From Myxococcales bacterium (GTDB taxonomy: Bacteria; Myxococcota_A; UBA9160; SMWR01), in the NCBI GenBank assembly GCA_022571825.1, contig JACZXC010000071.1, positions 1-10,106 of the forward strand: DNA of 10,106 nucleotides, written 5' to 3'. Positions 1 to 10,106 of this stretch are shown here, in pieces. How positions within the stretch are numbered: position 1 is the stretch's first letter; every line of letters starts with the position of its first letter. The notes beneath the pieces are model-generated. The model was not told where the DNA came from, made no database searches, and saw nothing but the letters and a program-made list of their open reading frames with translations. The translations under genes and the position numbers were made by a program.

Positions 1-367
1 GGGCGAGGCCCCCCGCGATTGCGTGGCCGTGGATTCGAGCCAGGGTGACGGCCTCGGCCTCTTCGATGGCGCGGCAGGCGCGAAGCCCGAGCTGCGCGAC
101 GTGGCGGCGCTCTCGATCCGTAGCGTCCGAAGAGGCCCGCAGTCGCGCGCTTCCCGGCGGCTCGCCCAGGTCGGCGCCCCCGCAGAAGGAGGGCCCGCGG
201 CCCCCGAAGATCACCACCCGGGACTGGAAGTCGCGCTGGAGGCCGCCGAAGAGATCCGCGATCTCCTCGAGCACCTTCCCGTTCAGCGCGTTCCGTTTTT
301 CGGGTCGGTCCAGCCAGACGTGCAGGATCGAGTCCTGGCGATCGACCTGAAGTGTGCTCCACGCCAT
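1..367 (-). CDS. Enoyl-CoA hydratase/isomerase (crotonase-fold) family protein, N-terminal ~122 aa. The C-terminus lies beyond the window start.
   Basis: My translation of the reverse complement from the ATG at 367..365 gives MAWSTLQVDRQDSILHVWLDRPEKRNALNGKVLEEIADLFGGLQRDFQSRVVIFGGRGPSFCGGADLGEPP...AVTLARIHGHAIAGGLA. It contains the crotonase hallmarks LDRPEKRNAL, FC(A/G)GADL and the oxyanion-hole AxGGG. A GAGG Shine-Dalgarno sits about 5 nt upstream of the ATG. The ORF is missing from the track because it has no stop within the window. Confidence 0.8.
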   Translation of the reverse strand, partial: MAWSTLQVDRQDSILHVWLDRPEKRNALNGKVLEEIADLFGGLQRDFQSRVVIFGGRGPSFCGGADLGEPPGSARLRASSDATDRERRHVAQLGLRACRAIEEAEAVTLARIHGHAIAGGLA

Positions 368-515
368 CGGCCTCGTTTACCACGTTGCGCTCACGCGTGT
401 CGAGGCTGGCCCGACGCCGAGCGGACTCGGCGACGCGCTATCCTTCGACCCACGGACCTTCGATCGTTCGCCCTTCGCCGCGCTACGACATCCCCTCGGG
501 AGCCTTGGAGAGCCC
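368..515. promoter_or_regulatory. Divergent intergenic region between the crotonase gene (-) and the small-protein/lipoprotein genes (+); presumed promoters
   Basis: A 148-bp non-coding gap between divergently oriented starts. A GGAG RBS lies just upstream of the ATG at 516. I could not identify -10/-35 boxes with confidence in this high-GC context. Confidence 0.3.
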
Positions 516-749
516 ATGACCCGACTGTCGGTGGACTTCGAGCATTCCCCCCGCACGTGGTGGGAGAACGGTGGTCAGGCGCTATGGGACGGGATCAGCG
601 ACGACTTCGACGAGAACGCGATCGTTCTCGACGACACCCTGGCGGAATCTTGGCTCGCCCAGGCCCGCAAGATCGCCGGGTGGGACGCGGGCCCGGAGTA
701 TGCGCCCCACCCGATTCATGCAGCCCCGGCGGATGAGGATCTCGAGTAG
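516..749 (+). CDS. Small acidic hypothetical protein (77 aa)
   Basis: An ATG at 516 is preceded by ggag. The product MTRLSVDFEHSPRTWWENGGQALWDGISDDFDENAIVLDDTLAESWLAQARKIAGWDAGPEYAPHPIHAAPADEDLE is D/E-rich with no recognisable domain. The longer GTG-354 version in the track would overlap the divergent crotonase start, so I prefer the shorter form. Confidence 0.35.
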   Translation: MTRLSVDFEHSPRTWWENGGQALWDGISDDFDENAIVLDDTLAESWLAQARKIAGWDAGPEYAPHPIHAAPADEDLE

Positions 750-818
750 GGCATCCGGCAACCGCCGCGGGTGTCATCGGGGCGAATCCGCCGAGTCGGG
801 TATCGTCGGCAAGGCTTC

Positions 819-1451
819 ATGAGTGCACCTCGCTTCACCGTTGGTCGATCCAATCTGCTGCCCATCCTCGCCGTCGCCACCCTGCTGGCCGGCTGCGCGG
901 GCAGCCCGGATCCCATGCGGTACCTGCTGGCCCACAGTGGTGACCACTGGGATACGGTCTCGGGCCGTTCGGTCGTCGATCCCCTCCGCGAGCGCTATCC
1001 GGAGTTCTTCCAGGTGATCCTGGATCCCTCCAAGACGCGCGAACCCGACTTGCGCCCCCTTCGCAACGATCTGGAGCGAGAGCCCGTTGATCACCGAAAC
1101 TTCCAGGCGCTTCACTCCATTGCCGTCGGATACTTCGAGCTCAACTATCGGGCCAATGCGATTCCCGGGGGTCCGAACTATTTCGCCGACAACTTCCGCG
1201 CCGCCAAGTTGGTCGCCGTGCCCTGGCGCGCCTACAGCGAGGTCGCAGACGGCCGTCTGCGCGACGCAATCCTCGACTTCTTCGAAGATGCGGGCTCTGG
1301 GGAGAAGCTCGGAACGGCGGTGACGGCGCCGCGACTGGCGCGGATCGTGGCGTCACTCGAAGCCAAGGAAACCGGCGATGCAGAGCGTCGACTGCGGATC
1401 CGAGGCCTTGCCGAGCGGCTGGTATCGATGTCCGGGGCCGACGGGCGCTAG
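819..1451 (+). CDS. Putative lipoprotein of unknown function (210 aa)
   Basis: From the ATG at 819 the N-terminus MSAPRFTVGRSNLLPILAVATLLAGCAGS has a positive n-region, a hydrophobic core and a lipobox L-A-G-C, consistent with a SPII-type signal. The mature part has no domain I recognise. The track ORF 771..1451 carries a 16-codon extension that does not look like a signal peptide. Confidence 0.65.
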   Translation: MSAPRFTVGRSNLLPILAVATLLAGCAGSPDPMRYLLAHSGDHWDTVSGRSVVDPLRERYPEFFQVILDPSKTREPDLRPLRNDLEREPVDHRNFQALHSIAVGYFELNYRANAIPGGPNYFADNFRAAKLVAVPWRAYSEVADGRLRDAILDFFEDAGSGEKLGTAVTAPRLARIVASLEAKETGDAERRLRIRGLAERLVSMSGADGR

Positions 1452-2560
1452 CCGCTCTCGACCGCGGGCGGCAGGGGCGGCGGTGATGCTCCGAACAGTC
1501 CCAGCAGCTGCGGGACCTGATTCGCCGAGGTCCAGCCGGCCATGCCCTGGGTCCACACGAGCGTGTCGGGACGAACCCGGCCCGCGCTGGCGGCCTGGGC
1601 GAGCTGCGGCGGCGTGAAGGGGCCGACGCTCTGCCCGTTTTCCGCGATGTGCCAGCTCGCGGGCAGGGGGGGCGGGGGCGCCTGGGGCCCGGTTTGGCCG
1701 GGAGCCCCGCCGGACAACATCGGGCCGGCCATGGCCATGCCCATTCCCAAACCCAAGCCCGCTCCCGCGATACCACCCGCCGGATTCCCGGCCGCCACCG
1801 GCATCGCCTGGCCGAGCTGATAGCTCTGAAATGCCGCCATGTCCCCGATCACGCTCATGCTCGTGCGGGTATCCAGGGCCTGTTCCACCTCGGCGGGAAC
1901 GGAGATGTTCACGATATAGAGCTGTGGGATCTCGAGGCCGTACTCGTTGTCGATGCGTTCGACCACCAAGTGGCGCACCTTTTCCGAAAGGTTCTGATAG
2001 TTAGACGCCAGGTCGAGAACGGCGATCTCGGATTTCGCGACCACGTCGGCGAAGCCCGTATTGATGATCGAACGAATCAGCTCGGTGATCTCGTCGGACT
2101 GGAACTCGGAGTCGGTTCCCACCAGCTCTTCGAGCAGGATCTTCGGATCCTGCGCCTTCAGCGTATAGGTTCCGAAGGCGCGGACGCGGATCGGGCCAAA
2201 GTCCGGGTCTCGCATCATGACGGGATTGGGCGTGCCCCACTTGAGATCCGTGATCTGCCGGGTGGAGACGAAGTAGACCTCGGCCATGAAGGGGGAGTCG
2301 AAACCGTATTTCCAGCCCGCGATTGTACTCAGGACGGGAAGGTTGGCCGTCACGAGTTTGTGCTGGCCCGGACCGAAGACGTCCGCGATTCGCCCCTGAC
2401 TGACCAGGATCGCCGCCTGGCCCGGACGGACGATGAGCTGGGCACCGTGCTTGATCTGGTTGTTGAAACGCGGAAATCGCCAGACGAGAGTGTGGCGGCT
2501 GTCGTCGACCCACTCGATGATGTCGATGAGTTCCGCGCGCAGCTTGTCGATCAGTCCCAT
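1448..2560 (-). CDS. SPFH/Band-7 family protein (YdjI-like, Band_7_1 type) with a C-terminal DUF4339/GYF-like domain preceded by Gly/Met-rich and Pro-rich linkers
   Basis: A 370-aa ORF with a strong AGGAG RBS 7 nt upstream of the ATG at 2560. The N-terminal ~270 aa (MGLIDKLRAELIDIIEWVDD...RPGQAAILV...) matches the Band_7_1 SPFH family that includes B. subtilis YdjI. This is followed by a low-complexity stretch (GNPAGGIAGAGLGLGMGMAMAGPMLSGG), PPPPLP, and the C-terminal segment WHIAENGQSVGPFTPPQLAQAASAGRVRPDTLVWTQGMAGWTSANQVPQL. That segment fits the DUF4339 pattern (W..G...GP....L......TLVW..GM..W). A second Pro tract (ASPPPLPPA) follows. Confidence 0.85.
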   Translation of the reverse strand: MGLIDKLRAELIDIIEWVDDSRHTLVWRFPRFNNQIKHGAQLIVRPGQAAILVSQGRIADVFGPGQHKLVTANLPVLSTIAGWKYGFDSPFMAEVYFVSTRQITDLKWGTPNPVMMRDPDFGPIRVRAFGTYTLKAQDPKILLEELVGTDSEFQSDEITELIRSIINTGFADVVAKSEIAVLDLASNYQNLSEKVRHLVVERIDNEYGLEIPQLYIVNISVPAEVEQALDTRTSMSVIGDMAAFQSYQLGQAMPVAAGNPAGGIAGAGLGLGMGMAMAGPMLSGGAPGQTGPQAPPPPLPASWHIAENGQSVGPFTPPQLAQAASAGRVRPDTLVWTQGMAGWTSANQVPQLLGLFGASPPPLPPAVESG

Positions 2561-2583
2561 GCTCTACTCCTTCGGTCGGGCGG

Positions 2584-3474
2584 TCAGGTGAATTTCTTCA
2601 GGAGGCCGGCGAAGACGTCCACGATCGAGCCTCCGATCGGAACGCCGCGGCTTGGTCGAATCTCCCGGGCGAGGCGCATTCGCGCAAATTCGGCCTCGGA
2701 CCGGGGGTCGACCCGCGGGCGGGACGCCTGGCGCAACTGCGGTGACATTTTGCCCCCGCTCAGGACGAAGCCCGCGATCTGCTCGAGTTCGTCGGCGTCG
2801 AGCCAGGTGCCATGACTGGAACAGCGGTCGATGATGACGCCGGAAGACCTCCGAAAATTGCGGCGCTGCATGAATCCGTCGCAGACGGGACACTTCCGAT
2901 ACTGGACGCGCTGAGCGGCCGGATTCGAACCGGTCACGCGAGGCTTGAGGGCGGCGAGCTGCGCCGGATCGGCGTTTCGGCGCGCGTCGATAGCGCGGCT
3001 CACCAGCAGATCGAAGCTGTCATCGGGGATCCAGAGGCCGTTGCACTCCCGACACTCGTTCAGGCCGATGCCCCCCACCTGGCGAGCCGGCATCAGCACG
3101 GTGCAAACGGGGCAGGGGAGCTCGTAGCTTTCGACCTGCACCTGTTGGGGCCGGAAGCCCACGCCGCAGGCCGTGCAGAAACGCGAGTCTTCTTGGTTGC
3201 GTCCGTAGCACTCGGGACAGATGAGACTGAGGTTCCCGGGATCGCGGACGATCGCCGATCCGCAGTAGTCGCAGGCCTCGACATCCGGGGAAATCAGGGC
3301 ACCGCATGCGGCGCAGCGGCGTACCGCGGCGTCTACGGCCTCGTGGGGATCGTTCTCGACGGTCTCGCCACAGCGACACGGGAACGACTTCGCGACGATG
3401 TCCGAAACGTCGTACTGGGTGTGGCAGTTCGCGCAGACGACAAGACGCACGACCCGGGCCCTCCCCCCGCGCAA
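2584..3474 (-). CDS. Multi-zinc-ribbon protein: three N-terminal CxxC...CxxC ribbons plus two TFIIB-type zinc-ribbon (zf-TFIIB/PF13453-like) domains; YdjG-like
   Basis: In the 296-aa ORF the track start at 3474 is TTG. A GTG at 3450 preceded by GGGGGGAGGG with 8-nt spacing is the more likely start. The N-terminal motifs are CANCHTQYDVSD...CRCGETV, CAACGALISPDVEACDYCG and CPECYGRNQEDSRFCTACG. Two copies of CPVC....M.......CxxCxGxW(L/I)DxDE(L) follow: LPCPVCTVLMPARQVGGIGLNECRECNGLWIPDDSFDLL and CPVCDGFMQRRNFRRSSGVIIDRCSSHGTWLDADELEQI. The stop lies only 23 nt upstream of the SPFH gene start, so the two are likely co-transcribed. Confidence 0.8.
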   Translation of the reverse strand: MRGGRARVVRLVVCANCHTQYDVSDIVAKSFPCRCGETVENDPHEAVDAAVRRCAACGALISPDVEACDYCGSAIVRDPGNLSLICPECYGRNQEDSRFCTACGVGFRPQQVQVESYELPCPVCTVLMPARQVGGIGLNECRECNGLWIPDDSFDLLVSRAIDARRNADPAQLAALKPRVTGSNPAAQRVQYRKCPVCDGFMQRRNFRRSSGVIIDRCSSHGTWLDADELEQIAGFVLSGGKMSPQLRQASRPRVDPRSEAEFARMRLAREIRPSRGVPIGGSIVDVFAGLLKKFT

Positions 3475-3626
3475 GGGCGCGTGTGGGGGTCATCGGGAGG
3501 TCTGCGCGGCGACTTTACGCGGGAGGGTTGCTCGATGTGCGAGGGGGATGGGCCCCGATTCGAGATTGGAAAGACGCTTCGCCGCATCTGGGGGCCTTCC
3601 CCGCCCCACGCAACGCCACAGCGGGG

Positions 3627-4454
3627 TTAGCGGGCGCCGAGGCGGTCGCCGCAGTGCTTGCAGAAACGCGCGTCTTCGGCGTGCCCTTCGCTGAGACAAC
3701 TCGGACAGGCGCGGGTGGTCACGGGTCGCCGGACCGAGTGGACGAGCTCGGCGGAAACGATGCCCGTGGGTACGGCGATAATGCTGTAGCCCATGATCAT
3801 GACCAGGGCCGCGATCATTTGTCCGGGCACGGTCTGGGGCGCGATGTCTCCGTAGCCCACCGTGGTCATGGTCACGATGGCCCAGTAGACGGAGATCGGA
3901 ATGTTGGTGAAGCCGTTCTCGGGTCCCTCCACGATGTACATGACCGCGCCCATGATCACCGACATCACGAGGACCGTGCCGAGAAAGATGATCACTTTGG
4001 GGGCGCTGCTCCGCAGCGCCGAGACCAGGATATTGGCCTCGCCGAGATAGCGGACCAGCTTGAACACTCGAAAAATGCGAAGCAGACGGAGTGCGCGGAT
4101 CACCAGGAGAGAATGGGAGCCGGGCAGGATCAGGCTCACGTAGCTGGGAAGAACGGCCAGGAGATCGACCATGCCATAGAAGCTGCGGGCATAGCGCCCG
4201 GGCTTGCGAACGCATGCGAGGCGCACGGCGTACTCGACCGTGAAGACAATGGTGATGACCCACTCGAAGGCGTGAAGCCACGGCCCGTAGTCATCCACGA
4301 TGTCGGACACGCTTTCCAGCATGACCGCGAGCACGCTCAGCAGAATCACGATCAGTAACGCGACGTCGAAGGCCTTGCCCGCCGGAGTATCGGCTTCGAA
4401 GATGACGATCCGGATGCGCTCGCGGATCTGCCCGGGTTCGCTTGCTGCGGTCAC
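3627..4454 (-). CDS. Voltage-gated-type (6TM) potassium channel with a C-terminal zinc ribbon
   Basis: A 275-aa ORF with a GTG start at 4454. Hydrophobic segments S1-S6 are present. The S4 voltage-sensor-like segment has Arg at every third position (IRALRLLRIFRVFKLVRY). The K+ selectivity filter is TTVGYGD. The C-terminus RACPSCLSEGHAEDARFCKHCG is a CxxC-(x14)-CxxC zinc ribbon in place of the usual RCK or tetramerisation domain. Confidence 0.85.
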   Translation of the reverse strand: MTAASEPGQIRERIRIVIFEADTPAGKAFDVALLIVILLSVLAVMLESVSDIVDDYGPWLHAFEWVITIVFTVEYAVRLACVRKPGRYARSFYGMVDLLAVLPSYVSLILPGSHSLLVIRALRLLRIFRVFKLVRYLGEANILVSALRSSAPKVIIFLGTVLVMSVIMGAVMYIVEGPENGFTNIPISVYWAIVTMTTVGYGDIAPQTVPGQMIAALVMIMGYSIIAVPTGIVSAELVHSVRRPVTTRACPSCLSEGHAEDARFCKHCGDRLGAR

Positions 4455-4581
4455 GAAACCTGCAATTCTCGCCGGGAGCGGACCTTCACACGTCGACCTC
4501 TGGATTCGCCGCCGGATGGTAACGTCCGGAAAGGTCCATGAAAGGCCGACGGGCCCTATGCTCTCGACCCGGGAGGGTGAA
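4455..4581. promoter_or_regulatory. Divergent intergenic region between the K+ channel gene (-) and the ADH gene (+)
   Basis: A 127-bp gap between divergent starts. It contains a short imperfect palindrome, CCGGAtggtaACGTCCGG, that could be an operator. The strong GGGAGGG RBS for the ADH lies at 4571..4577. Confidence 0.3.
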
Positions 4582-5577
4582 ATGCGGGCAATCTTGTTCG
4601 ACCGACCGGGGCGACCGCTGCGGGAAGCCGATCTCCCCGAGCCCGTCCCGCAACCGGGTCAAGTGCGGGTTCGCGTGCACGCCTGCGGTGTATGCCGAAC
4701 CGATCTCCACGTGGTCGACGGTGAGCTCCCGGACCCCAAGCTGCCTCTCGTGCTCGGTCATCAGATCGTGGGACGGGTCGAGGCGGTGGGCCCCGACGCC
4801 GAGGGCTTTGCCATCGGCGACCGGATCGGTGTGCCCTGGCTGGGCGGAAGCTGCGGTGCGTGTCGCTTCTGTTCGACCGGCTGCGAGAATCTGTGCGACG
4901 CCGCGCGCTACACCGGATACCAGATCGATGGCGGTTTCGCCGACTTCTGCACCGCAGACCCGCGTTTCTGCTTTCCCATTCCCGAGCGTTATTCGGACCT
5001 CGATGCGGCCCCGCTTCTCTGCGCGGGTCTGATCGGGTACCGGGCACTGCGGATGACGGGCGACGCCGAGCGACTGGGCTTCTACGGATTCGGGGCATCG
5101 GCGCATATCCTCATCCAGGTCGCGCGATTCGAAGGTCGCGAGGTCTATGTCTTCACCCGGCCCGGGGATGCGGCAGCCCAGCGGTTCGCAGAAGAGCTGG
5201 GCGCGGCGTGGGTCGGAGGCTCGGATCGGGTGCCTCCGGATCCGCTCGACGCCGCGATCGTGTTCGCGCCGGTCGGCGGACTGGTGCCCGCCGCGCTGCG
5301 CGCCGTGAGGAAGGCGGGCGTGGTCGTCTGCGCGGGAATCCACATGAGTGAGATCCCCGCTTTCCCCTACTCGATTCTCTGGGGTGAGCGGGTACTCCGG
5401 TCGGTTGCGAACGTCACGCGCCGCGATGGCGAGGAGTTTCTCGCCCTGGCGCCGAAAGTTCCAGTCCGAACGGAAATTCACCGCTACTCCCTCGACCAGG
5501 CGCCGCGCGCCCTCAGCGACCTGCGAGAGGGGTGCTTCACCGGCGCAGCGGTGGTAGCGGTCCGACCGGGGGACTGA
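4582..5577 (+). CDS. Zinc-dependent alcohol dehydrogenase (MDR superfamily)
   Basis: The ATG at 4582 is preceded by GGGAGGG with a 4-nt spacer. The 331-aa product has catalytic-Zn motifs CGVCRTDLH and GHQIVGRV. The structural-Zn motif is GGSCGACRFCSTGCENLC. A Rossmann-like GFYGFGASAHI precedes the NAD-binding region. The 4300..5577 track ORF has an implausible 94-aa N-terminal extension that overlaps the opposite-strand channel gene. Confidence 0.85.
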   Translation: MRAILFDRPGRPLREADLPEPVPQPGQVRVRVHACGVCRTDLHVVDGELPDPKLPLVLGHQIVGRVEAVGPDAEGFAIGDRIGVPWLGGSCGACRFCSTGCENLCDAARYTGYQIDGGFADFCTADPRFCFPIPERYSDLDAAPLLCAGLIGYRALRMTGDAERLGFYGFGASAHILIQVARFEGREVYVFTRPGDAAAQRFAEELGAAWVGGSDRVPPDPLDAAIVFAPVGGLVPAALRAVRKAGVVVCAGIHMSEIPAFPYSILWGERVLRSVANVTRRDGEEFLALAPKVPVRTEIHRYSLDQAPRALSDLREGCFTGAAVVAVRPGD

Positions 5578-5588
5578 CCATGCGTCTC

Positions 5589-5630
5589 CCGGGAACGACC
5601 GCCGCGAAACCTTTGGTTCCCCGGTGTGTT
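5589..5630 (+). terminator. Possible intrinsic terminator downstream of the ADH gene
   Basis: An inverted repeat CCGGGAAC...GTTCCCCGG has an ~8-bp stem with one bulge and a 19-nt loop. It is followed by TGTGTT, 12 nt after the ADH stop. The U-tract is weak, as is common in high-GC genomes. Confidence 0.35.
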
Positions 5631-5668
5631 CGACTCCACAGCGGAATGGGCCGCTCGGGAGAAAACTC

Positions 5669-6220
5669 ATGAAACGGACTGGGATTCTGGCACTGGCGAT
5701 GAGCTTGGCGTGGGCACCCGCCGCCACCGCGGTGGCGGGCGAGGAAGACGCTCTCAACCGGGCGGGCGATCGGATCGAGCGCCACCTCGATCGCCGGGGA
5801 GATCGCATCGAAGACCGACTCGATCGCCGAGGTGATCGCATCGATCGCCCCCTCGATCGTCGGGGAGATCGCATCAAAGACCGACTCGATCGCCGGGGCG
5901 ACCGCATCGATCACCGGCTGGATCGCCGGGGCGATCGCATCGATGCGCGTCTCGACCGCGCCTCCGGCCGAGCCGCCGAGGCCGGGAACGATGGGCTCGC
6001 GACGTGGCTGGATCGTCGGGGAGATCGCATCGAAGACCGACTCGATCGCCGAGGCGACCGCATCGATCACCAGTTGGACCGCCGAGGCGACCGCATCGAT
6101 CACCAGTTGGACCGCCGGGGCGACCGCATCGATCACCGGCTGGATCGCCGGGGAGACCGCATCAATCGTTGGCTGGATGGGCGGGGCGATCGCGCCCGCA
6201 GGGGCGGTGGCCACCGCTGA
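5669..6220 (+). CDS. Secreted repeat protein: signal peptide followed by ~11-12 tandem 11-residue repeats (L/I)DRRGDRI(E/D)xR carrying ~11 RGD motifs
   Basis: The ATG at 5669 is preceded by GGGAGA. The N-terminus MKRTGILALAMSLAWAPAATAVAGEE has an n-region (KR), a hydrophobic core and an AxA-type cleavage site. The rest is GDRIEDRLDRR-type repeats in two blocks separated by a non-repeat spacer (ASGRAAEAGNDGLATW). The frame is chosen on the signal peptide. Codon third-position GC in this frame is lower than in two alternative frames; see findings. Confidence 0.55.
   Translation: MKRTGILALAMSLAWAPAATAVAGEEDALNRAGDRIERHLDRRGDRIEDRLDRRGDRIDRPLDRRGDRIKDRLDRRGDRIDHRLDRRGDRIDARLDRASGRAAEAGNDGLATWLDRRGDRIEDRLDRRGDRIDHQLDRRGDRIDHQLDRRGDRIDHRLDRRGDRINRWLDGRGDRARRGGGHR
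5760..6185. repeat. Imperfect 33-bp tandem repeat array of ~12 units in two blocks, consensus ctcgatcgccggggagatcgcatcgaagaccga, rich in CGATCG/GATC palindromes
   Basis: Direct inspection shows the 33-mer recurring head-to-tail over 5760..5940 and 6004..6185, with point variants (gag/gcg, gaagac/caccgg/caccag). It encodes the 11-aa protein repeat of the overlapping CDS. Confidence 0.8.
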
Positions 6221-6319
6221 GCCGCGCCCGTCGCCCCCGCTGCCCTGAGCGCACCCGTGAGGCGTGGCTCGACGACCCACGCGCTTCGCGACGAATCCGC
6301 GCGCTAGAATCCCTGTGTC

Positions 6320-7768
6320 ATGGGCCGATCCGAAATGCTTCGTCCGATTGGACCCGCGGTCTTCGAGCTCCCGCGCGACTTTCGTCCCGGCATGCGGGTT
6401 CCGGTGCGGATTTACGGTACAGAGAAGCTGGTGGCCGAAATGGACCCCGAGGTCTTCCGGCAGGCCGCGAACGTCGCCACCCTGCCGGGCATCGTCGAAG
6501 CCAGCTTCTGCATGCCCGACGCGCACCGGGGCTATGGATTCCCGATCGGCGGGGTTGCCGCCATCGATGCCGAGACGGGGGTGATCTCGCCCGGCGGGAT
6601 CGGCTTCGACATCAACTGCGGCATGCGGCTCGTGCGCACCGACCTGCGCTGGCCAGAGGTTCAGCCACGCCTGCGCGAACTCGTCGATGCCCTGGCGGAT
6701 CGCGTGCCGGCGGGAGTGGGTTCCCGAGGCTTCGTGCGGGTGACCCGCGACGAGTTCCGCGAGCTGCTGGAAGGAGGCGCGGGCTGGGCGGTCGCCCGGG
6801 GGTACGGGACCGAAGCGGACCTGGAGACGACCGAGGAGAAGGGCTGCTTCGAGAGCGCCGACCCGGCGTGCGTAAGCGAGCGGGCCATCGAGCGGGGTCA
6901 ACGACAGATCGGCACCCTCGGCTCGGGAAACCACTACCTGGAAATCCAGGTGCTTCGGCCCGATGGAATCTTCGATGCAAGGCTCGCGAAGGCTTTCGGC
7001 CTTTCGCTCCCGGAGCAGGTCGTCGTGATGTTTCACTGCGGCAGCCGGGGATTTGGACATCAGGTAGCGACGGATTACCTGCGATCGTTTCGCCGGAGCA
7101 TGCCGAAGGAGTACGGACTCGACCGCGAGCTGGCGTGTGCCCCCTTTGCATCCCCCGATGGCCGCGACTATTACGGCGCGATGTGCTGCGCCGCCAACAT
7201 GTCTTTCGCGAACCGTCAGGTGATCCTTCACCGCATCCGCGAGGTCTTCTCCGATGTGTTTGGTCGCGATCCCGACGCGCTGGGGATCCGGAACGTCTAC
7301 GACGTGGCCCACAACACTGCGAAGCTGGAGCGCATCGAGCTCGGCGGATGCGAACGCACGCTGCTGGTCCATCGCAAGGGCTCTACCCGTGCGCTTCCGC
7401 CGGGCCATCCGGAGCTTCCGCCCGTGTATCGCCAGACGGGCCAACCGGTCATCATCGGTGGCAGCATGGAGACCGGTTCCTACGTCCTGGCGGGTGTGGC
7501 CAGTGGGATTGCCAGCTTCTACAGCAGCGCCCACGGAAGCGGGCGGAGGATGAGCCGCACCCAGGCCCGCAAGCTGGTGCGGGGCCGGGAGCTTCGGGAG
7601 CGCATGGCGAGACGGGGAATCTGGGTCCGCGCCGCCTCCGATCGCGGCCTCGCCGAGGAGGCGGCCATCGCCTACAAGGATGTCGATGAGGTGGCCGAGG
7701 CCAGCGAGATCGCCGGGCTGTCGCGACGCGTGGCCCATCTGATTCCGGTCGGAAACGTGAAGGGATGA
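6320..7768 (+). CDS. rtcB: RNA-splicing ligase RtcB (3'-phosphate/5'-hydroxyl RNA ligase), archaeal/Thermus-type
   Basis: The 482-aa product aligns by eye along its whole length with Pyrococcus RtcB. Shared segments include GMRVPVRIY, NVATLPGIVEASFCMPDAHRGYGFPIGGVAAID, GVISPGGIGFDINCG, GSGNHYLEIQV, HCGSRGFGHQVATDYL, YDVAHNTAK, HRKGSTRALPPGH, GQPVIIGGSMETGSY and YKDVDEV. The start is the ATG at 6320 or 6335. Confidence 0.95.
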   Translation: MGRSEMLRPIGPAVFELPRDFRPGMRVPVRIYGTEKLVAEMDPEVFRQAANVATLPGIVEASFCMPDAHRGYGFPIGGVAAIDAETGVISPGGIGFDINCGMRLVRTDLRWPEVQPRLRELVDALADRVPAGVGSRGFVRVTRDEFRELLEGGAGWAVARGYGTEADLETTEEKGCFESADPACVSERAIERGQRQIGTLGSGNHYLEIQVLRPDGIFDARLAKAFGLSLPEQVVVMFHCGSRGFGHQVATDYLRSFRRSMPKEYGLDRELACAPFASPDGRDYYGAMCCAANMSFANRQVILHRIREVFSDVFGRDPDALGIRNVYDVAHNTAKLERIELGGCERTLLVHRKGSTRALPPGHPELPPVYRQTGQPVIIGGSMETGSYVLAGVASGIASFYSSAHGSGRRMSRTQARKLVRGRELRERMARRGIWVRAASDRGLAEEAAIAYKDVDEVAEASEIAGLSRRVAHLIPVGNVKG

Positions 7769-8790
7769 CTCGAGGCGCGCCTCGCGGGAGCGGGGACCTG
7801 ACCAAACGGACGCTCCCGACGGGGAAACTTCCCGCCGCGCTGCTCGGGGAGCTTCTGGCCTCGGGTCCGCCCCTGCCCGACGAGGTTCTTCTGGGGCCGA
7901 GGGTTGGAGAGGACGCCTGTGCGATCCGGGTGAAGTCCGGGGTGCTCGTGGCGGCCACCGATCCCATCACCCTCACCGGCGGCGACGTTGGAGGACACGC
8001 CGTGGTGATCAATGCCAATGACGTCGCGGTCCTGGGCGTGCGCCCCCGTTGGTTCCTCGCGTGCGTATTGATGCCACCCACCGCCACCGAGGCCGACATC
8101 CGCGTCCTGTTCGCGGACACGCGTACCGCCCTGGAGAGTGTCGGCGCCGCCCTCGTGGGAGGACACACGGAGGTGACGGAGGCCGTCAATCAACCGGTCG
8201 TCGTGGGACAGATGTTGGGACTGCGTGAGGACGGACACTTCGTTCCGACCCGGGGGATGGGGGAGACCGACGCGGTACTTCAGGTCGGTCTCGCGCCGGT
8301 GGAAGGGGCCGCTGTACTCGCCCGAGAAGCCGACTTCGACGTGCCGCCGGATATGCTGGCCCGGGCCCGTGACGCGCTGCGCGATCCGGGCATCAGCATC
8401 GTGAAGGCGGCGCTGCGGGCCGCCGAGCTGGGGGCAACCGCGCTCCACGATCCCACCGAGGGTGGACTCTCCGCCGGCCTGCATGAACTGGCCGACGCAT
8501 CCGGGGTGGCATTGTGTATCGATGCCGATGCGGTCCTGTGGTTCCCGAGTGGTCTCGCCGTGTGCGCCGCGCTGGGGGCCGATCCCTGGGGTGTGCTTGC
8601 CTCCGGGACGCTGCTGGCCGCCTTTCCCGGGTCGTCCGCCGAGGAGATACTTGCCATCCTGGTAGGGGAGGGGTTCCCGGTCGCGATCATCGCCCGCGCC
8701 GAGCGGGGAAACGGCGTGCGGCTGGCCGATGGCTCGCCGCTTCGACGTTACGAGCGCGACGAGGTCTCGCGGGTGCTGGACACCGCTTGA
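7765..8790 (+). CDS. AIR-synthase-related (PurM-like superfamily) protein, HypE-like but lacking the HypE C-terminal PRIC motif
   Basis: The ATG at 7765 overlaps the rtcB stop (ATGA, 7765..7768). The product (KLPAALLGELL...DACAIRVKSGVLVAATDPITLTGGDVGGHAVVINANDVAVLGVRPRWF...GGHTEVTEAV...) matches the HypE/PurM N-domain pattern TD..I.P..F.GG.IG..A...ANDVAV.GA.PR. A C-terminal AIRS_C-like domain is present. There is no terminal Cys and no SelD-type N-terminal Cys/Sec. Confidence 0.75.
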   Translation: MTRGAPRGSGDLTKRTLPTGKLPAALLGELLASGPPLPDEVLLGPRVGEDACAIRVKSGVLVAATDPITLTGGDVGGHAVVINANDVAVLGVRPRWFLACVLMPPTATEADIRVLFADTRTALESVGAALVGGHTEVTEAVNQPVVVGQMLGLREDGHFVPTRGMGETDAVLQVGLAPVEGAAVLAREADFDVPPDMLARARDALRDPGISIVKAALRAAELGATALHDPTEGGLSAGLHELADASGVALCIDADAVLWFPSGLAVCAALGADPWGVLASGTLLAAFPGSSAEEILAILVGEGFPVAIIARAERGNGVRLADGSPLRRYERDEVSRVLDTA

Positions 8791-8871
8791 GCTCCAGACG
8801 CGGCAGCTCGCTGCAGGAGGTCGTCGACTTCAGGTGGCCTACCATCGCGGCCTCGAGCAGGTGAGCCGTCG

Positions 8872-9891
8872 GTGACAAACGTGAGCATTCTGGGGGCGGG
8901 GGCCTTTGGGACCGCGCTGGCCATTTACGCCGGCGGCCTCGGTCATCGGGTTCGTGTCTGGGCCTTCGACGATGGACTCCCCGAGGCGGTGGCGGCCCAG
9001 GGCGAGAACTCCCTGTACCTTCCGGGCTTCCCCGTTTCCGAAGAGATCGGCTTCACCAACGAAATCGCCGAGGCGCTGGCCGGAGCCGACCTGGTGATGT
9101 TTGTGGTCCCCTCGGCATACATGCGCAGCGTGAGCACTGCCGCAGCACCGTGGATTCCGGACGAGGCCTTGATCACCTCGACCGCCAAGGGCATCGAGAG
9201 CGAGAGCCTGGCCACGATGAGCGGGGTTCTGGAAGAGACGCTGCCGTCGCGTCGAAGTCGTCTCACGTTTCTGTCCGGTCCGAGCTTTGCGCGCGACGTG
9301 GCATCGGGTCTTCCCGCGGATGTTGCACTGGCGGCGTCGGATATCGATGTCGCGCGCAGCGTGCAGTCGATCCTCCACTCGCCGCGCTTCCGCGTCTACA
9401 CCAGCGACGACGTCATCGGAGTCGAGCTGGGCGGGGCGCTGAAGAACGTGATTGCCGTCGCCTGCGGCGCCGCTCACGGGCTCGGCATGGGAGCGTCCGC
9501 CCTGGCGTCGTTGATGACCCGGGGACTGGCTGAAATCGCGCGACTGGGCGTCGCGCTGGGCGCGAATCCGTTGACGTTCCTCGGACTGGCCGGCGTCGGC
9601 GACCTGACCCTCACCTGCAACGGCGAGTTGTCACGGAATCGACAATTGGGCCTGCGCCTGGCTCGGGGGGAGCGGGCTGAAGAGATCGCCGCTTCGCAGA
9701 AGGCGGTGGCCGAGGGCTACATGAGCGCGCGTCCGGTGCACCGGCTGGCGGGGCGCGAGGGCGTCGAGATGCCCATCGCCGAAGCGGTCTATCGCGTGTG
9801 TTGCGAAGGGGCCGACGTACGCGAGGAAGCCGCCGCACTGATGCAGCGAGAGATGAAGGACGAGCTCGCGGGAGTGTTCGCTCCCCGGTGA
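8872..9891 (+). CDS. gpsA: NAD(P)H-dependent glycerol-3-phosphate dehydrogenase
   Basis: The GTG at 8872 has an AGGTGA RBS 7 nt upstream. The product has the Rossmann N-terminus [12 protein letters not shown] and the GpsA motifs [24 protein letters not shown] and GDLTLTC. It is 339 aa, typical of GpsA. Confidence 0.9.
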
Positions 9892-10106
9892 GACGCGCCG
9901 CGCCCTGGGTGCTCCTGGCGGCCGGCGTGGCCGTGTTTCTGTCCGAGTCCTGGGTTCGGCACGCCCAACTCGACGACGCCTACATCTCCTACCGCTACGC
10001 GGACAATCTCGTCTCGGGGCTCGGGCTCGTCTACAACCCGGGTGAGCGCGTCGAGGGCATGACGAATTTGCTCTGGACACTGCTCGTGGCCGTCGGGATG
10101 GGCCTG
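9888..10106 (+). CDS. Integral membrane protein, N-terminal fragment (possible GT-C-type glycosyltransferase-like). It continues beyond the window end.
   Basis: The GTG at 9888 overlaps the gpsA stop (GTGA). My translation is [73 protein letters not shown]. It has a TM helix, a [28 protein letters not shown] motif and a second TM helix. GC3 is high with no stop to the window end. The functional assignment is tentative. Confidence 0.45.

Follow-up and report, generated by a model that had tools for sequence, protein, structure and literature searches.

A conserved two-gene operon of a soluble five-zinc-ribbon protein and an SPFH-GYF protein in Myxococcota

Organization of the Locus

We analyzed a 10,106-nucleotide (nt) stretch of DNA from a Myxococcales bacterium (assembly GCA_022571825.1, contig JACZXC010000071.1, positions 1 to 10,106; hereafter the window, G+C about 67%), in which three successive open reading frames (ORFs) lie on the minus strand at positions 1448–2560, 2584–3474 (as listed) and 3627–4454. 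They encode an SPFH protein ending in a GYF domain (SPFH-GYF), a protein with five zinc ribbons (ZnR5) and a Kv-type K+ channel (Table 1). The ribbon gene and the SPFH gene form a conserved two-gene unit, and the channel gene lies outside it. An earlier reading of the locus, made from the letters without database searches (the sequence-only reading), had taken all three genes for one membrane module. The domains that it predicted (Band_7_1 with DUF4339 in the SPFH protein, two zf-TFIIB ribbons with DZR in the middle protein, and Ion_trans with a zinc ribbon in the channel) agree with the Pfam run, in which the channel ribbon is recovered weakly, as DZR.

All members of the ZnR5 family in a 28-member alignment begin at the GTG at position 3450, which is preceded by GGGGGAGG, and the real product is therefore 288 rather than 296 amino acids (aa) long. 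The gap between the channel and ZnR5 genes is 152 nt when measured to the TTG and 176 nt when measured to this better-supported GTG. At its 3′ end, the SPFH gene meets the lipoprotein-like ORF 771–1451 of the plus strand convergently, and the transcription unit therefore ends there. A scan of positions 1200–4800 revealed neither promoters nor terminators, and the stretches 3′ of the channel gene and 3′ of the SPFH gene folded with z = +0.98 and −0.93, respectively, relative to shuffled controls, which corresponds to no excess structure.

Table 1. Positions of the genes and of the protein features that they encode (window coordinates; aa numbering of ZnR5 from the GTG start).
Feature	Position	Strand	Remarks
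ZnR5 gene	2584..3450	−	288 aa, five zinc ribbons, soluble; gene 1 of the conserved pair
Ribbons 1–3 of ZnR5 (aa 6–95)	3166..3435	−	invariant Cys columns; ribbon 2 is RCAACGA...CDYCGSAIVRD
Ribbons 4–5 of ZnR5 (aa 113–213)	2812..3114	−	TFIIB type, PF13453 in two stretches; a helix after each
C-terminal amphipathic helix of ZnR5 (aa 273–288, ...SIVDVFAGLLKKFT)	2587..2634	−	pattern conserved in the family alignment
Intergenic spacer ZnR5/SPFH-GYF	2561..2583	−	23 nt; GAAGGAG Shine-Dalgarno motif 6 nt before the SPFH ATG
SPFH-GYF gene	1448..2560	−	370 aa, Band_7_1 SPFH and GYF_2; gene 2 of the conserved pair
SPFH domain (aa 26–236)	1853..2485	−	Band_7_1 profile
Glycine-zipper-like segment (aa 257–283, AAGNPAGGIAGAGLGLGMGMAMAGPML)	1712..1792	−	rich in glycine, alanine and methionine; after the SPFH domain
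Proline-rich motif PPPPLP (aa 295–300)	1661..1678	−	directly before GYF; poly-Pro run conserved there in orthologues
GYF_2 domain (aa 303–352)	1505..1654	−	PF14237, former DUF4339; E = 6e-21, profile positions 1–50 of 50
Proline-rich motif PPPLPP (aa 360–365)	1466..1483	−	tail after GYF; PPP[LPV]P in most orthologues
Kv-type K+ channel gene	3627..4454	−	C-terminal zinc ribbon; lineage-specific neighbour outside the conserved unit

Conservation of the Gene Pair

A scan with the profile of the ZnR5 family, with one genome per species for 185,579 species, yielded 65 loci, with which the proteins of the window were then compared by tblastn. The SPFH-GYF gene lies directly downstream of the ZnR5 gene on the same strand in 61 of the 64 loci that can be evaluated, the 65th ending at a contig edge. 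Across the 60 pairs in which both genes are complete, the spacer has a median length of 28.5 nt and does not exceed 112 nt in 58; the two longer spacers belong to frameshifted ribbon genes. A Shine-Dalgarno-like motif precedes the SPFH start, again in 58 of the 60 pairs. The operon-like arrangement of the two genes, which the sequence-only reading had taken as almost certainly co-translated because of the 23-nt gap and the ribosome-binding site in it, was thus confirmed both by the spacer with its GAAGGAG motif and by the retention of the pair. Four further contigs (L159–L162), taken with independent gene calls and precomputed Pfam labels, carry the same pair.

Such a pairing is far beyond chance. 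ZnR5 followed by SPFH-GYF constitutes a two-gene operon, inherited together in about 60 species-level lineages, mostly metagenome-assembled genomes (MAGs) of Myxococcota, amid changing surroundings. The mean identity to relatives is 70% for SPFH-GYF versus 57% for ZnR5. A large protein collection contains 961 relatives of ZnR5, of which the named ones come from MAGs of Myxococcota or "Deltaproteobacteria"; tblastn with ZnR5 gave no match in a plasmid collection, and a scan of viral contigs with its profile gave none either.

Surroundings of the Pair

A conserved third gene was sought by all-against-all clustering of the ORFs in the 65 loci and by a census of the immediate neighbours of the pair. 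No such gene was found: no flanking cluster occurs in more than 18 of the 65 loci, and the largest clusters with real genes are housekeeping. Sorting the 115 immediate neighbours of the pair gave 57 unrelated clusters, and the biggest is present in 12 loci. RpoD and DnaG lie upstream in one subclade and arginine decarboxylase (speA) in another, and an FAD oxidoreductase lies downstream; other representatives (GlnE, an ADP-forming acetyl-CoA synthetase, a GAF protein, a histidine kinase, an MBL-fold protein, hisF) are likewise mostly metabolic or housekeeping.

PspA was searched for with the Escherichia coli protein as the query and then with a small hidden Markov model that included the matches. 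There is none in the window, and a PspA_IM30 gene occurs within 8 kb in only 2–3 of the 65 loci and never adjoins the pair. In L015 (about 13240–13776) and L017 (about 14620–15148), a PspA/IM30 gene (Pfam E = 2e-11) lies 3–4 kb downstream of the pair, past a histidine kinase on the opposite strand; L030 has one weak further match. Since PspA is found near so few loci and several kb away, it is not part of the unit. The Psp envelope-stress set as a whole (PspA/IM30 with a membrane sensor such as PspBC, LiaIF or YdjGH) is not in the neighbourhood either, the flanks being ordinary and variable. The absence of PspA, which the sequence-only reading had noticed in the window, thus holds across the family, with these few loci as the exceptions.

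Properties of the Two Proteins

SPFH-GYF matches Band_7_1 (PF13421) with E = 3.2e-96 and 321 bits against a cut-off of 24, over profile positions 1–210 of 211, and Band_7 with E = 3e-16. No transmembrane (TM) segment was detected in it, no Kyte–Doolittle window of 19 residues (KD19) exceeding 1.6. The glycine-zipper-like segment (almost invariant in the orthologues as NPAGGLAGAGVGLGMGMAMAG) reaches a KD19 of 1.41, which is under the TM threshold, and its residues N259, P260, G262, G263, A265–G268, G270 and G272–G274 are nearly invariant in the alignment and in 58 orthologues. At the C-terminus there are no Cys pairs and no zinc finger; the protein ends in GYF_2 flanked by polyproline. This domain resembles the solved GYF domain of GltJ/AgmX (7z3c, E = 1.6e-5).

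In ZnR5, Pfam finds Zn_ribbon_TFIIB (E = 4e-10) and DZR (E = 4e-8), each in two stretches of ORF 2584–3474. The 28-member alignment resolves five four-ligand ribbons, C6/9/25/27, C46/49/60/63, C78/81/92/95, C113/116/133/136 and C187/190/210/H213, and all 20 metal ligands are conserved across the family. No TM segment was found (maximum KD19 1.12), and neither the AlphaFold2 (AF2) model nor the alignment reveals an NTF2-like or other globular domain after ribbon 5, where about 55 poorly conserved residues are followed by one helix. The only confident part of the model is ribbons 4–5 with their trailing helices (predicted local distance difference test, pLDDT, about 75–87).

The terminal helix, which AF2 places at aa 276–287, has the pattern phi-x-S-phi-phi-x-x-phi-x-x-phi-phi, and its median hydrophobic moment is 0.56 compared with 0.51 for the 95th percentile of the other 11-mers of the family. 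It occupies the position at which the Vibrio-type partner proteins described below carry a TM helix. Sequence searches of the PDB and Foldseek gave no global relative of ZnR5 and only weak single-ribbon matches to RNA polymerase subunit P, reverse gyrase and, for the TFIIB-type ribbons 4–5, the small zinc-finger protein ZifS (8yoz); the literature on ZifS/8YOZ provided nothing useful.

The K+ Channel Gene

The product of 3627–4454 matches Ion_trans (E = 1e-39) and Ion_trans_2 (E = 8e-15), with a weak DZR match on aa 247–269. Its sequence includes a TVGYGD filter, a ladder of arginines in S4 (RALRLLRIFRVFKLVR) and, at the end, a tail with the pattern CPSC...CKHC. A zinc-ribbon cytoplasmic tail is unusual for a Kv channel. 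In KvAP- and MVP-like channels with six TM segments, the Ion_trans domain, the arginine ladder and the TVGYGD filter are the same, and an RCK or other cytoplasmic domain stands in the place of the conserved C-terminal ribbon.

The channel gene adjoins the pair only in the clade of the window, at 86% identity or more: in L001 (ZnR5 86% identical), L066, L162 and probably L161 (SPFH protein 90% identical). The other 63 ribbon-anchored loci lack it; from L002 (73% identity) downwards, a GlnE-like gene or a different one lies upstream. From the channel side, a scan of metagenomes returned more than 531 relatives, and neighbourhoods were taken from the best 80 loci. ZnR5 lies next to the channel in one of these 80, L066, which is 98% identical and effectively the same organism; 42 of them have at least 1.5 kb of downstream sequence and contain neither ZnR5 nor SPFH there. 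The CPxC...CxxCG tail is kept in 79 of the 80 relatives, next to unrelated neighbours.

On this basis, the channel gene is independent of the pair and a recent neighbour, which in this lineage came to lie between the pair and the ADH-family gene. The proposal of the sequence-only reading that the channel belongs to one module with the pair had to be abandoned by the refuting condition that this reading had itself set: the trio is not conserved beyond this clade, while the two-gene unit is strongly confirmed. The suggested hetero-association through the ribbons fares no better, as a tail common to the channel family regardless of its neighbours provides no evidence for it. For a phage-related role, which had also been considered, no support was obtained: PADLOC gave no match for any of five proteins, including the products of all three genes, and no viral contig encodes ZnR5.

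Other K+ channels in the vicinity of the pair were sought with phmmer and filter motifs, and none turned up in the other loci of the 65-locus scan. In L159, a metagenomic relative whose SPFH-GYF is 77% identical to that of the window, a different, ribbon-less K+ channel (13538–14263; Ion_trans_2, TLGYGD) is encoded 2.4 kb downstream of the pair, past three intervening genes. Apart from the channel of the window's clade, no further one was seen near the pair, and the position of the L159 channel is probably a coincidence.

SPFH Genes and Ribbon Proteins in Other Phyla

A collection of plasmids and chromids was searched with the SPFH protein, and the neighbourhoods of the matches were then read. 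In Vibrio coralliilyticus and V. scophthalmi, an SPFH-GYF gene is followed after 4 nt by a gene for a protein of 352–362 aa, in which two ribbons at the N-terminus and a domain of about 230 aa precede a C-terminal TM helix. Paracoccus versutus has SPFH-GYF with the same kind of ribbon-TM partner, downstream of TelA and DUF2927. The order in Ralstonia is DUF350, SPFH-SHOCT and a ribbon-DUF4178 protein, and in Novosphingobium SPFH-SHOCT, two ribbon-DUF4178 proteins and a spermidine-synthase-like ORF (a membrane protein). Bacteroides finegoldii has SPFH-GYF, a multi-TM protein and a ribbon-TPR protein, and Nocardia has an SPFH protein with a double ribbon in cis. Thus, a ribbon is present in trans or in cis in all six of the further contexts read from the SPFH side.

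A comparison of ZnR5 with the Vibrio, Paracoccus and Ralstonia partners by hhalign gave probabilities of 38–59% (E from 1e-4 to 3e-4), the aligned region being ribbon 2 and, in one case, ribbons 1–2. This likeness is no more than suggestive. The proteobacterial contexts (L149, 2427–7428; L148, 4551–7542; L152, 3986–8720) echo the PspA-associated contexts of Ravi et al. 2024.

Comparison with Known Systems

To our knowledge, SamI (YdjI) of Bacillus subtilis is the only Band_7_1 SPFH protein that has been studied, and its dependence on a zinc-ribbon membrane protein is usually treated in one context with its link to PspA. SamI is soluble and needs YdjG/YdjH for membrane binding, and it carries a low-complexity stretch along with a C-terminal zinc finger (PMC8581546; bioRxiv 10.64898/2026.02.06.704340). 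YdjG is the membrane receptor for the SPFH protein (PMC8581546) and consists of two ribbons, an NTF2-like (YpeB-related) domain and a TM segment (PMC11237479). Like PspA-SamGHI (pspA-ydjGHI), the pair described here has a Band_7_1 SPFH protein that lacks a TM anchor, with a low-complexity segment rich in glycine behind the SPFH domain, and an operon that also encodes a multi-ribbon protein, which may here too serve as a receptor or regulator of the SPFH oligomer. The differences are equally clear. Genes for PspA and for YdjH/TPM are missing, the SPFH gene comes directly after the ribbon gene, and the host belongs to Myxococcota rather than Firmicutes. The C-terminal part of SPFH-GYF is a GYF domain between polyproline motifs, whereas SamI ends in a zinc finger. 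Unlike SamG (YdjG), ZnR5 has five ribbons and neither an NTF2-like domain nor a TM segment, with a C-terminal amphipathic helix instead; with YdjG taken as described in PMC11237479, it is therefore not YdjG-type by architecture.

The likening of the pair to YdjG/YdjI thus stands in part. The fact that Band_7_1 genes adjoin ribbon proteins in other phyla gives comparative backing to the Bacillus analogy; the assignment of the middle protein to the YdjG type does not hold. The pair would then work like the SamG/SamI partnership without being a member of that system, ZnR5 being set apart by the description of YdjG.

The closest counterparts on the SPFH side are the pairs of Vibrio and Paracoccus, whose SPFH-GYF proteins have the same architecture (44–51% identity), including the glycine-rich segment and the polyproline flanks, and whose ribbon gene is likewise co-oriented within a few nt. 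There, however, the partner is encoded downstream, and its architecture resembles that of YdjG, with two ribbons, the domain of about 230 aa and the C-terminal TM helix; its similarity to ZnR5 is confined to one or two ribbons (hhalign probability 50–59%). Canonical SPFH scaffolds (HflK/C, FloA/FloT, QmcA/YqiK with NfeD) have in common with our protein the SPFH domain, the expected ring or cage oligomers on the membrane and a dedicated operon partner. They differ in their N-terminal anchors, which are TM segments or hairpins, and in their partners, which are NfeD or proteases, whereas here the SPFH domain is of the Band_7_1 type and anchor-less and the partner is a ribbon protein.

The combination of SPFH and GYF was already listed in 2007 (PMC2034487), and an adjoining ribbon is present in about 44% of bacterial GYF proteins (PMC11135422). 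The ribbon of GltJ binds the intervening linker, its GYF domain binds a proline-rich sequence, and together they make a switch; more generally, ribbons beside GYF domains in bacteria take part in protein–protein switching, as versatile ribbon-linker-GYF modules (PMC11135422). Our pair shares with GltJ (AgmX) a homologous GYF_2 domain, a ribbon coupled to it and the logic of a proline-rich ligand. In GltJ, however, the ribbon and the GYF domain are parts of one TM polypeptide with TonB-like parts and without SPFH, while here they belong to two soluble proteins, without a link to MglA, AglZ or Glt genes.

Proposed Model and Alternatives

The reading to which we give somewhat better than even chances is that of an anchor-less, PspA-independent SPFH scaffold with a soluble multi-ribbon adaptor, encoded by a two-gene operon from which the channel is excluded. 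Contacts between its SPFH domains would assemble SPFH-GYF into ring- or cage-like oligomers at the inner face of the cytoplasmic membrane. The glycine-zipper-like segment and the GYF domain with its two polyproline motifs could provide membrane contact and multivalent binding to itself or to partners, in cis or between subunits, and so shape or stabilize the assembly. ZnR5 would be the dedicated partner, of which one or more ribbons bind SPFH-GYF, possibly at the linker before the GYF domain, as the ribbon of GltJ does in cis; its terminal amphipathic helix may attach it peripherally to the membrane. In such a scheme, ZnR5 would replace the membrane-anchored ribbon proteins that accompany Band_7_1 proteins elsewhere and would recruit or gate the scaffold in the way that SamG/SamH act on SamI, but with neither a transmembrane sensor nor an adjoining PspA. 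The interaction of the two proteins, their attachment to the membrane and a role related to stress are what we infer from the comparisons given above.

Several observations weigh against this model. Three divergent ZnR5 loci (L045, L046 and L061, 40–49% identity) have other genes downstream and no adjoining SPFH gene. The Vibrio-type ribbon-TM family, with at least 2400 relatives, stands alone in the Bacteroidota genomes examined (L153–L156, no SPFH gene within 4 kb), and adjacency to SPFH is therefore recurrent and lineage-dependent but not obligatory. The aligned pattern CPxCGA...CxYCxS is near the generic ribbon knuckle (CPxCG), so common descent of the ribbons is not proven. The AF2 model of ZnR5 is only moderate overall, and that of SPFH-GYF, built on a low-diversity alignment of 44 sequences, has a mean pLDDT of 52, with only the GYF domain usable (pLDDT about 90). 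Finally, membrane binding by the helix or by the glycine-rich segment is a putative property, deduced from residue patterns.

Other explanations have to be weighed against the same data. A switch adaptor of the GltJ type, whose output would be an unlinked proline-rich partner (cytoskeletal or related to polarity) brought to SPFH platforms rather than protection from membrane stress, is unlikely in our estimate, and it is compatible with much of the model proposed above. The similarity of the GYF domain to that of GltJ, the Myxococcota host, the versatility of ribbon-linker-GYF modules as switches (PMC11135422) and the polyproline flanks, which suggest an autoinhibition that a partner could relieve, speak for it. 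On the other hand, Vibrio, Paracoccus and Bacteroides, which lack the Agl-Glt machinery, likewise combine SPFH-GYF with a ribbon protein, no conserved third gene points to a ligand, and the ribbon and the GYF domain are here on separate polypeptides. ZnR5 might instead be a nucleic-acid-binding or regulatory ribbon protein, such as a transcription or translation factor, with a regulatory link to SPFH-GYF; TFIIB-type ribbons classically bind nucleic acid or polymerase, relatives bear the JGI label "Zn-finger nucleic acid-binding protein", and the weak PDB matches (RNA polymerase subunit P, the ribbons of reverse gyrase, ZifS) point the same way. We regard this as quite improbable, because ZnR5 has no helix-turn-helix or other DNA-binding domain and has a conserved C-terminal amphipathic helix, and because the short gap with its Shine-Dalgarno motif looks like the stoichiometric coupling typical of the subunits of a complex; moreover, YdjG in Bacillus is a membrane receptor for the SPFH protein (PMC8581546), and bacterial ribbons beside GYF domains switch protein–protein contacts (PMC11135422).

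The 20 ligands of ZnR5 also bring to mind a switch that is sensitive to zinc or redox state, like Hsp33/RsrA, in which the SPFH scaffold would be released or activated once the cysteines are oxidized or zinc is lost. The full conservation of all five four-ligand sites, and cation-efflux, Usp or AhpC-type neighbours in some loci, are consistent with it; these neighbours are not conserved, however, and nothing sets the ribbons of ZnR5 apart from structural zinc sites, which makes the idea very unlikely. The least probable explanation is a sensor-scaffold-channel module of all three genes, in which ribbon contacts would couple the scaffold to K+ flux in envelope integrity or phage-triggered depolarization. 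The genes are co-oriented with no terminator-like hairpin between the channel and ZnR5, the arrangement is kept in L001, L066, L162 and probably L161, and L159 has its different channel 2.4 kb from the pair. Nevertheless, the neighbourhood data largely refute it: the channel is missing from the other 63 ribbon-anchored loci, even at 73% identity, the pair is missing from 79 of the 80 channel-anchored loci (42 of them with at least 1.5 kb of downstream sequence), the ribbon tail of the channel is constant whatever the neighbours, and PADLOC matches and viral contigs are lacking. A more elaborate variant, which we consider quite improbable as well, would combine an autonomous, PspA-independent scaffold with a switch of five zinc sites (responding to zinc, redox state or stress) that controls a GYF-polyproline-driven SPFH cage through redistribution of the ribbon of YdjI-type proteins from cis to trans, and with a captured Kv channel that docks by its ribbon tail in its own lineage.

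Taken together, these comparisons suggest that the partnership of SPFH and ribbon proteins recurs across phyla, in trans or in cis, with PspA, TPM, DUF4178, TelA and DUF350 as lineage-specific additions. The pair is not a new kind of system, and the link to the channel dissolves; what it provides is a minimal, widely conserved and PspA-free case of a partnership otherwise known from one model organism. The Myxococcota version is its most stripped-down form, consisting of two soluble proteins with no other conserved neighbour, and it ties together two themes that have been described separately, the SPFH-ribbon theme of Bacillus and the ribbon-GYF switch of Myxococcus GltJ. It would be a clean system in which to ask by what means an SPFH protein without an anchor gets to the membrane and which tasks fall to the ribbons, the GYF domain and the polyproline motifs. 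In the literature searched, we found no published description of the five-ribbon family or of its pairing with SPFH-GYF. Our conclusions are comparative, and their practical yield is a set of about 60 orthologous sequence pairs.

Other Genes of the Window

Downstream of the pair, the plus-strand ORFs 771–1451 (226 aa, lipoprotein-like) and 354–749 (131 aa) have no family match; their convergent position behind the pair is conserved in L001, L002 and L004, the closest relatives, and nowhere else. The ADH-family ORF 4300–5577 (+) has an N-terminal extension of 94 aa as listed, and its homologues and profile matches start at M95 (nt 4582); with this start, it shares a divergent intergenic region of about 130 nt with the channel gene.

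ORF 5624–6220 (+) encodes a 198-aa protein with a signal-peptide-like N-terminus and about 12 copies of the 11-aa unit DRLDRRGDRIx (33-nt period), which has a relative in L004 and remains below the curated cut-offs in Pfam and NCBIfam. The RtcB RNA ligase gene (6320–7768, +) overlaps by 4 nt (ATGA) the gene 7765–8790 (+) for an AIR-synthase-like protein of the HypE/ThiL/SelD superfamily, which is below every NCBIfam cut-off; the overlap suggests that this is a partner gene of RtcB.

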